4,312 nucleotides of DNA. Source: Escherichia coli. GTDB taxonomy: Bacteria; Pseudomonadota; Gammaproteobacteria; Enterobacterales; Enterobacteriaceae. Shown in pieces: positions 1 to 121 of this stretch (position 1 is the stretch's first letter; every line of letters begins with the position of its first letter). The translations under genes and the position numbers were made by a program. The stretch lies in the NCBI RefSeq assembly GCF_003334405.1, contig NZ_QOWM01000033.1; one strand, 5' to 3'. The notes beneath the pieces were generated by a model. It saw only the letters and a program-made list of their open reading frames with translations, had not been told where the DNA came from and did no database searches.

Positions 1-20
1 CCGCCGGGAGCGGATTTGAA

Positions 21-65
21 CGTTGCGAAGCAACGGCCCGGAGGGTGGCGGGCAGGACGCCCGCC
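21..65 (+). other. GC-rich stem-loops in the inter-terminator region of an rRNA operon 3' flank (CGTTGC-GAA-GCAACG at 21-35; GGCGGGC-AGGAC-GCCCGCC at 47-65)
   Basis: Inverted repeats read directly from the sequence. Neither is followed by a T-run, so they are not called as terminators in their own right. From memory, the sequence matches the rrnB T1-T2 region widely carried on expression vectors. Confidence 0.6.
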
Positions 66-93
66 ATAAACTGCCAGGCATCAAATTAAGCAG

Positions 94-121
94 AAGGCCA
101 TCCTGACGGATGGCCTTTTTG
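94..121 (+). terminator. Rho-independent terminator, rrnB T2-like
   Basis: AAGGCCATCC-TGAC-GGATGGCCTT perfect 10-bp stem with 4-nt loop (stem 94-117), immediately followed by TTTTTGCGTTT. Recognised from memory as the rrnB T2 terminator; no database check was possible. Confidence 0.85.

Follow-up and report, generated by a model that had tools for sequence, protein, structure and literature searches.

The rrnB T2 terminator module with the RrB small RNA spacer, and a candidate promoter, upstream of murB-birA in Escherichia coli

We analyzed a 4,312-nt stretch of Escherichia coli DNA (the window) and conclude that bases 1-122 almost certainly represent, on sequence comparison, the last two thirds of the dual-terminator module closing the ribosomal RNA operon rrnB. 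They carry the 3′ part of the gene for the small RNA RrB, followed by terminator T2; downstream, murB and birA would be transcribed from a promoter of their own, with little read-through from rrnB. We consider this reading as a whole to be very probable. The rrnB 3′ region is already known in detail, comprising T2 and the rrB tRNA-linked repeat sRNA gene; modestly new are the presence or absence of T1 and rrB at the level of strains, and the comparative definition of a putative murB promoter block.

The window corresponds to positions 4171844-4176155 of E. coli K-12 MG1655 (NC_000913.3) with a single mismatch, a T for G at 1802 (CTG>CTT) that is synonymous at Leu188 of birA. The MG1655 RefSeq order is murI, rrsB, gltT, rrlB, rrfB, murB, birA, coaA (minus strand), thrU-tyrU-glyT-thrT and tufB. 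The operon rrsB-gltT-rrlB-rrfB is thus immediately upstream, the 5S gene rrfB ending 87 nt 5′ of base 1. An initial annotation of the window had placed an rrn operon on its 5′ side and proposed alignment of the window start to the rrnB 3′ flank as a check. That alignment is exact in MG1655 over bases 1-213, a plain substring match, and a complete rrnB does lie directly upstream of murB-birA. The opening bases had also been assigned to the T1-T2 region, which is right for its distal part; T1 itself lies upstream of the window. The features discussed below are collected in Table 1. The overlap of murB and birA (ATGA, 1239-1242) suggests translational coupling.

Table 1. Features of the window discussed in the text (window coordinates)
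Feature	Position	Strand	Basis or remarks
Stem-loop CAAAUCCGC-CGGGA-GCGGAUUUG	1..18	+	Folding; first 4 nt of the 5′ arm precede the window
GGA motifs of stem-loop 1-18	7-9 (loop), 12-14	+	Sequence and fold
rrB gene, 3′ 89 nt (T1-T2 spacer, tRNA-linked repeat)	1..89	+	RNA ends of PMC8144298 placed on the sequence
Stem-loop CGUUGC-GAA-GCAACG	21..35	+	Folding; core of similarity to the tyrT rtT repeat
GGA motif in small hairpin	40-42	+	Sequence and fold
Stem-loop GGCGGGC-AGGAC-GCCCGCC	47..65	+	Folding; GGA 55-57 in loop
18-bp direct repeat AACTGCCAGGCATCAAAT	69..86	+	Last 13 nt of 5S rRNA plus 5 nt
rrnB T2 intrinsic terminator	90..122	+	Core stem 94-103/108-117, loop UGAC, extended stem 90-122, U-tract 116-120, then GCG UUU
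Locus-specific spacer	123..172	+	Low conservation between genera; REP/IS insertion site in other species
Candidate weak -35, AAGCCA (3/6)	156..161	+	Putative; 17 nt 5′ of the -10, within a moderately conserved ACAAGCC block (154-160)
Conserved block ATACGGTAAACTA with candidate -10 TAAACT (179-184; 4/6, G at -14)	173..185	+	79-sequence alignment
Predicted murB leader: G191, UUUUGCAUC, Shine-Dalgarno AGGA 202-205, 8 nt before ATG	191..213	+	Conservation
murB (UDP-N-acetylenolpyruvoylglucosamine reductase)	214..1242	+	ORF and RefSeq annotation
birA	1239..2204	+	Start overlaps the murB stop (ATGA)

T2 has the form of an intrinsic terminator, a GC-rich hairpin directly before a U-tract. Its core is built of perfect 10-bp arms around a 4-nt loop, followed by TTTTTGCGTTT, and folds at -22.7 kcal/mol (z = -6.6). 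A simple terminator scan of the window did not list T2, because under the rules of the scan the stem reaches into the T-run (to base 119) and the 8-nt tail window then holds just 4 T; the omission is a scanner artefact and no evidence against T2. T1 is located between rrfB and the window, at MG1655 ~4171761-4171805 (~6262-6305 of locus L001), where Term-seq 3′ ends at 4171799/4171800 mark it (PMC7815308 supplement). The same table holds no 3′ end at T2 and is uninformative there, since rrnA carries the identical 122 nt up to this end and short reads probably multi-map. Termination efficiencies of 87% at T1 and ~100% at T2 are quoted from Orosz (1991) in PMC8144298; in a reporter, the read-through fraction of rrnB T1 was 0.009, or 99.1% termination (PMC9023263). 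On the published values, T2 would stop essentially all transcription that had passed T1.

To place this arrangement in a wider context, we compared 80 murB loci from Enterobacteriaceae, one genome per species. Most of these contigs end ~60-600 nt upstream of murB, which we attribute to the adjoining, repeated rrn operon; where the sequence extends far enough, the murB ATG is preceded at 112-262 nt by a 5S gene or its tail. In each of the 47 distinct murB-proximal sequences, a strong hairpin (-20 to -29 kcal/mol) and a T-run come within ~10-17 nt of the 5S tail. The stems at the T2 position fall into about nine unrelated sequences, with the T-run kept in every case, and compensatory changes were found in 7 of 11 hairpin-stem pairs (of 14 predicted pairs in the 47-sequence alignment). 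The murB-proximal rrn terminator therefore appears to be conserved as structure rather than as sequence. Brandis et al. (2019; PMC6735719) regarded murB-birA-coaA as having been inserted where rrnB and tufB ancestrally adjoined in Enterobacteriaceae, and the universal rrn-murB adjacency seen here agrees with that view. In Enterobacter sp. JUb54 (L034 1240-1500), two hairpins follow the 5S gene, a T1-like one and then a T2-like one, with no second 5S tail and no sRNA body between them.

The bases ahead of T2 are themselves highly structured. Bases 1-125 fold at -63.7 kcal/mol, compared with -43.5 +/- 3.5 for 200 dinucleotide shuffles, none of which was as good (z = -5.8). Folding thus bears out the initial description of successive stem-loops, the last with a T-run. 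Having been taken as part of the terminator, however, these stem-loops prove to be more than padding, as they form the body of the RrB-encoding tRNA-linked repeat (PMC8144298). The T1-T2 spacers of rrnA, rrnB and rrnD belong to the tRNA-linked repeat family (Stenum et al., 2021, PMC8144298), whose defining trait is that the 3′ end of the stable RNA lying upstream is repeated; the 5S-tail repeat is a hallmark of the family and has been proposed as an RNase E processing signal (PMC8144298). The same features are found here. The last 18 bp of the unit are the 5S tail, and AACTGCCAGGCATCAAAT occurs both at the end of rrfB and in the window, 168 nt apart from start to start; the unit directly follows rrfB, as it does rrfA and rrfF. 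The family is also said to be credited to Egan and Landy in 1978 and to Rudd in 1999.

The RrB RNA itself has been characterized by northern blots, S1 mapping, cRACE and EMSA (PMC8144298). It is made by read-through of T1, measures 173 nt and runs from 3 nt past the 5S to 3 nt past the repeat; a 113-115-nt form is enriched on Hfq, and CsrA binds RrB in vitro via GGA motifs, those in loops having been tested by EMSA (PMC8144298). Placed on our sequence (L001 6261-6433), the RNA starts 83 nt 5′ of the window, 3 nt past the 5S 3′ end, and ends at base 89. The full RNA folds at -87.2 kcal/mol (z = -8.2). Of the five GGA motifs in this spacer of rrnB, four are in the window (Table 1) and one is just upstream; in our fold, those at 7-9 and 55-57 occupy hairpin loops. 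In its locus, 18-bp repeat, stem-loops and GGA motifs, the window shows no sequence difference from the RrA/RrB/RrF sRNAs. By the published account, polymerases that pass T1 transcribe the spacer (PMC8144298). In that account, the transcript is cut 3 nt past each 5S-tail copy, probably by RNase E, yielding short-lived 173-nt RrB and the shorter form, and both bind Hfq and, in vitro, CsrA through the GGA motifs. We suggest that bases 1-89 be annotated as rrB/TLR instead of "terminator stem-loops." Two other readings of this interval were rejected. A degenerate second 5S gene found no 5S match by cmscan (E <= 10) in L001 6258-6560, the resemblance to 5S being limited to the 13-nt tail and a GAGTAGG word; and the small ORFs between T1 and murB are merely mechanical, 22-36 aa long and unsupported.

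The module is polymorphic within the species. Bases 1-213 are contiguous in 2,521 of 5,426 complete E. coli genomes (46%), which thus have T1 and the RrB spacer before murB; in the other 54%, the match begins only at base 69, under the annotated 5S gene. Short alleles, aligned from strains SMS-3-5 and WCHEC025985, consist of the 5S gene, CAAAT, one hairpin and the murB flank, and are without the 168 bp between the 18-bp repeats (5S tail, T1 and spacer). Some 2,300 genomes (about 42%) carry a variant stem, GGCCCAGTC-GGAA-GACTGGGCC (GGCCCAGUC-GGAA-GACUGGGCC), with 91-93% identity over 69-213, and ~560 genomes carry the K-12 T2 hairpin without T1. The predicted murB promoter block, described below, is identical in all three alleles. 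The indel itself comprises window 1-86 plus the 82 nt upstream (MG1655 4171762-4171929), with the 18-bp repeats as its end points. The variant single terminator, as seen in SMS-3-5 (L002 1512-1560, approximately window 82-125), combines T2-type flanks with a T1-like stem, and stems of this class also occur in Citrobacter amalonaticus (L024) and Kosakonia (L083). Two PLSDB "plasmids," one of 425 kb from C. freundii (L092) and one of 5.37 Mb from K. pneumoniae (L093), contain rrn-spacer-T2-murB; evidently chromosomal DNA recorded under a plasmid label, they show that the form with T1, spacer and T2 precedes murB in C. freundii and K. pneumoniae too.

This variability bears on whether the spacer does anything as an RNA. 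Across all loci, the spacer body (L001 6306-6412, window -38 to 68) is present in 3,946 of the 5,426 genomes (73%), at a median copy number of 2, and in the remaining ~27% no RrA/B/F-type spacer was detectable by megablast, which is awkward for a conserved essential role of RrA/B/F. The hairpins of bases 1-68 could accordingly be read as lacking sRNA function, as a selfish or neutral tRNA-linked duplication spread among rrn operons by gene conversion, and acting at most as spacing or as a back-up pause signal for termination and 5S processing. Its absence from more than a quarter of genomes, and its presence at rrnB in fewer than half, fit this alternative. So do the paralogous copies, 94-100% identical as gene conversion predicts, and the phenotypes of deletion and overexpression, which are modest and not opposite in sign; the authors themselves grade the physiological role of RrB as modest (PMC8144298). 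On the other hand, Escherichia, Kluyvera, Citrobacter freundii, Klebsiella pneumoniae and Salmonella share a nearly invariant spacer body, flanked by terminator stems that do change. One stem is even preserved through complete sequence change, hairpin 21-35 being swapped for CAGCACG-ACC-GUGCUG in Enterobacter sp. L038. Together with the published evidence for a defined RNA, Hfq enrichment and GGA-dependent CsrA binding (PMC8144298), these observations lead us to think a functionless spacer rather unlikely, though it deserves serious consideration.

A more adventurous idea is that the indel between the 18-bp repeats constitutes a natural regulatory polymorphism, such that strains differ in the growth-rate coupling of murB-birA and in the dose of a CsrA-binding sRNA. 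If ~1% of rrn transcription escaped a single terminator, the alleles would differ measurably in both respects, but we rate this proposal as a long shot. The T1 + rrB polymorphism offers a natural experiment on RrB function and on the insulation of rrn operons from downstream genes.

The module is shared with other rrn operons. Bases 1-122 are not specific to rrnB: over this length, the rrnA 3′ flank matches at 100% identity and the rrnD flank (after rrfF) at 94%. Homology among rrn flanks extends no further than base 122, with unique DNA from 123 onward; only 123-213 and murB identify the locus. The rrnB T1-T2 dual terminator, reportedly due to Brosius and colleagues in 1981, is widely used in vectors of the pKK223-3, pTrc and pBAD types. 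Small plasmids and vectors contain the same 125 nt with 100% identity. Compared with the full T1-T2 module, the window has the identical sequence at its native chromosomal locus, from mid-spacer through T2, lacking T1 and the initial 83 nt of the spacer RNA. The T1-spacer-T2 module lies behind rrnA and rrnD as well as rrnB, and not behind rrnC, rrnE, rrnG or rrnH, a distribution that agrees with PMC8144298. Of these, rrnG has a T2-type hairpin only, and the ends of rrnC, rrnH and rrnE differ. Single-terminator ends, as in rrnG, the short rrnB alleles and most Enterobacteriaceae, consist of the 5S tail, CAAAT, a T2-type hairpin and TTTTTGC, equivalent to window 69-122; unlike the operon of the window, they have no T1, spacer or sRNA.

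The spacer also resembles the rtT repeats of tyrT-tyrV (RtT RNA; Rfam RF00391), likewise hairpin-rich units that close by repeating the 3′ end of the preceding stable RNA; rtT repeats the tRNA-Tyr tail, whereas the rrnB spacer repeats the 5S rRNA tail. Local sequence similarity centers on GAACGTTGC..GCAACGGCCCGGAGGG. Smith-Waterman alignment of the spacer to one 178-bp rtT unit scored 19, compared with 10.6 +/- 1.9 for shuffled sequences (3 of 2000 as good). With cmscan, RF00391 scored 19.2 bits (E = 0.14; 17 bits in another run), far below the gathering threshold of 45 bits, and a BLAST comparison of spacer and tyrT rtT repeats gave no match. The alignment and cmscan lend weak support to a relationship; in the literature, both are placed in the TLR family (PMC8144298). 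Further downstream in the window are the tRNA genes thrU, tyrU, glyT and thrT (3545-3986) and the start of tufB (4101-4312); the 116-nt tyrU-glyT spacer (3714-3829) contains neither a repeat of the tRNA-Tyr 3′ end nor an RtT match.

We then considered how murB and birA are transcribed. A promoter scan of 122-213 found no consensus-grade sigma-70 site; the best hexamer pair, AAGCCA-17-TAAACT, matches at 7 of 12 positions, below the scanner threshold. Comparison of 79 distinct Enterobacteriaceae sequences was more informative. The block ATACGGTAAACTA shows 95-100% identity per column, except for A175 at 75%, and the leader from 191 to 209 is conserved to the same 95-100%, with G191, 7 nt after the -10, at 99%. 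Within the leader, TTTTGCATCAGGA (193-205) and AGC (207-209) are nearly invariant; positions 186-190 are free, and A185 is invariant. By comparison, synonymous sites in the first murB codons are 52-76% conserved, placing the TAAACT positions above the neutral background. The block is shared across about 20 genera, whereas sequence upstream of ~150 is unalignable from genus to genus. The promoter block stays while the DNA upstream of about -40 is freely replaced, as seen in differing terminator types, in REP insertions and in an IS remnant; in two loci (L027 and L058), unrelated DNA extends as far as the ACAAGCC block. Among individual insertions, Escherichia sp. MOD1-EC7003 (L015 1-345) has a REP element and the N-terminal remnant of a transposase-like ORF between terminator and promoter block, and Citrobacter (L018, L022) has one or two REP-like palindromes there; all insertions between terminator and murB fall upstream of the ACAAGCC block.

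Taken together, the invariant TAnnnT hexamer, the unconstrained discriminator, the purine conserved 7 nt later, the U-rich leader and the Shine-Dalgarno sequence lead us to infer an independent murB promoter. With fair confidence, resting on comparative sequence, we conclude that murB has a conserved, weak promoter of its own. Transcription of murB-birA would come mainly from this sigma-70-type promoter, with the -10 TAAACT and a poor -35, and would start near G191 (MG1655 ~4172034) to give an unstructured leader of ~23 nt. No mapped murB 5′ end was found in the SMRT-Cappable-seq, Cappable-seq, Conway 2014, Kim 2012, Cho 2014 or Mendoza-Vargas 2009 datasets, whose supplement texts are probably incomplete. 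Several alternatives within this interval were set aside. An alternative -10, TACGGT (174-179) with -35 TCTACA, has its critical A175 replaced by G in 25% of species; motifs for sigma-54, sigma-32 and a DnaA box, judged by eye, are not conserved across genera; and an attenuator or riboswitch finds no counterpart in the murB leader, 122-260 being no more structured than shuffles (z = +1.46).

The conserved region 173-209 might instead serve regulation or translation, as an operator or a translation signal, within a longer leader that starts at 122-170 or in the terminator region. Conservation through 191-209 does exceed what a core promoter needs, and the ACAAGCC block is conserved despite being a poor -35. 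However, a promoter upstream of ~150 would not be conserved, because that region is unalignable and interrupted by REP and IS elements. The lack of RNA structure also speaks against a longer leader, and the pattern as a whole, with TAnnnT, poor conservation of 185-190 apart from A185, and a purine at +1, fits promoter geometry. We therefore regard the longer leader as improbable, and retain the candidate promoter at 173-191.

The remaining question is whether rrnB read-through could do the work of a promoter. The initial annotation had suggested that murB-birA might depend partly on terminator leakage, and had noted no convincing sigma-70 promoter ahead of murB. Its observation stands, in that 122-213 has no consensus-grade sigma-70 site, but the argument built on it is weakly supported in view of the conserved TAAACT block and leader and of the ~100% efficiency of T2. 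In its strong form, murB-birA would have no effective promoter and would draw a significant share of its transcripts from rrnB polymerases that pass both T1 and T2. Essentially all the Enterobacteriaceae murB loci that we examined do have an rrn operon immediately 5′ of the gene. T1 is leaky by the quoted value of Orosz, and the RrB spacer RNA exists. Initiation at rrn operons can approach 1 per second, and by a rough estimate, leakage of 0.1-1% would give 0.06-0.6 transcripts per minute. Set against a weak promoter, and above all in strains with one terminator, such a figure would not be negligible.

Against this stand the efficiency of T2 in the quoted data and the 99% termination at T1 in the reporter. 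Moreover, the -10-like element and leader are preserved while the type and number of terminators and the spacer DNA vary, and E. coli strains with one and with two terminators share the same downstream block. Its identity in the three alleles argues, indirectly, that expression of murB-birA is independent of terminator number. A level set by leakage would also be hard to tolerate for the essential murB and the dosage-sensitive regulator birA, given the variation in terminator number. On balance, the notion that murB-birA lacks a promoter is probably wrong, as far as sequence comparison can tell, and we judge transcription dominated by read-through to be very unlikely. A small read-through contribution may exist, and we would expect it to add little. 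The pair is best regarded as a transcription unit of its own, served by a conserved, non-consensus candidate promoter.

Finally, published maps and the sequence offer some further observations on the transcripts of this region. A weak birA transcription start (5 reads; Kim et al., 2012) lies at window 1238, 1 nt 5′ of the birA ATG. Term-seq places a 3′ end inside murB, at window 796 (4172639, plus strand), in two conditions, and it is not listed as Rho-dependent in the PMC7815308 table. The 3′ end of coaA by Term-seq, 4174046 on the minus strand, corresponds to window 2203. At 2203-2227, between the convergent birA and coaA genes, is a hairpin, AGGGGAGCGAATACTCCCCT, with T-runs on either side, which looks like a bidirectional terminator.
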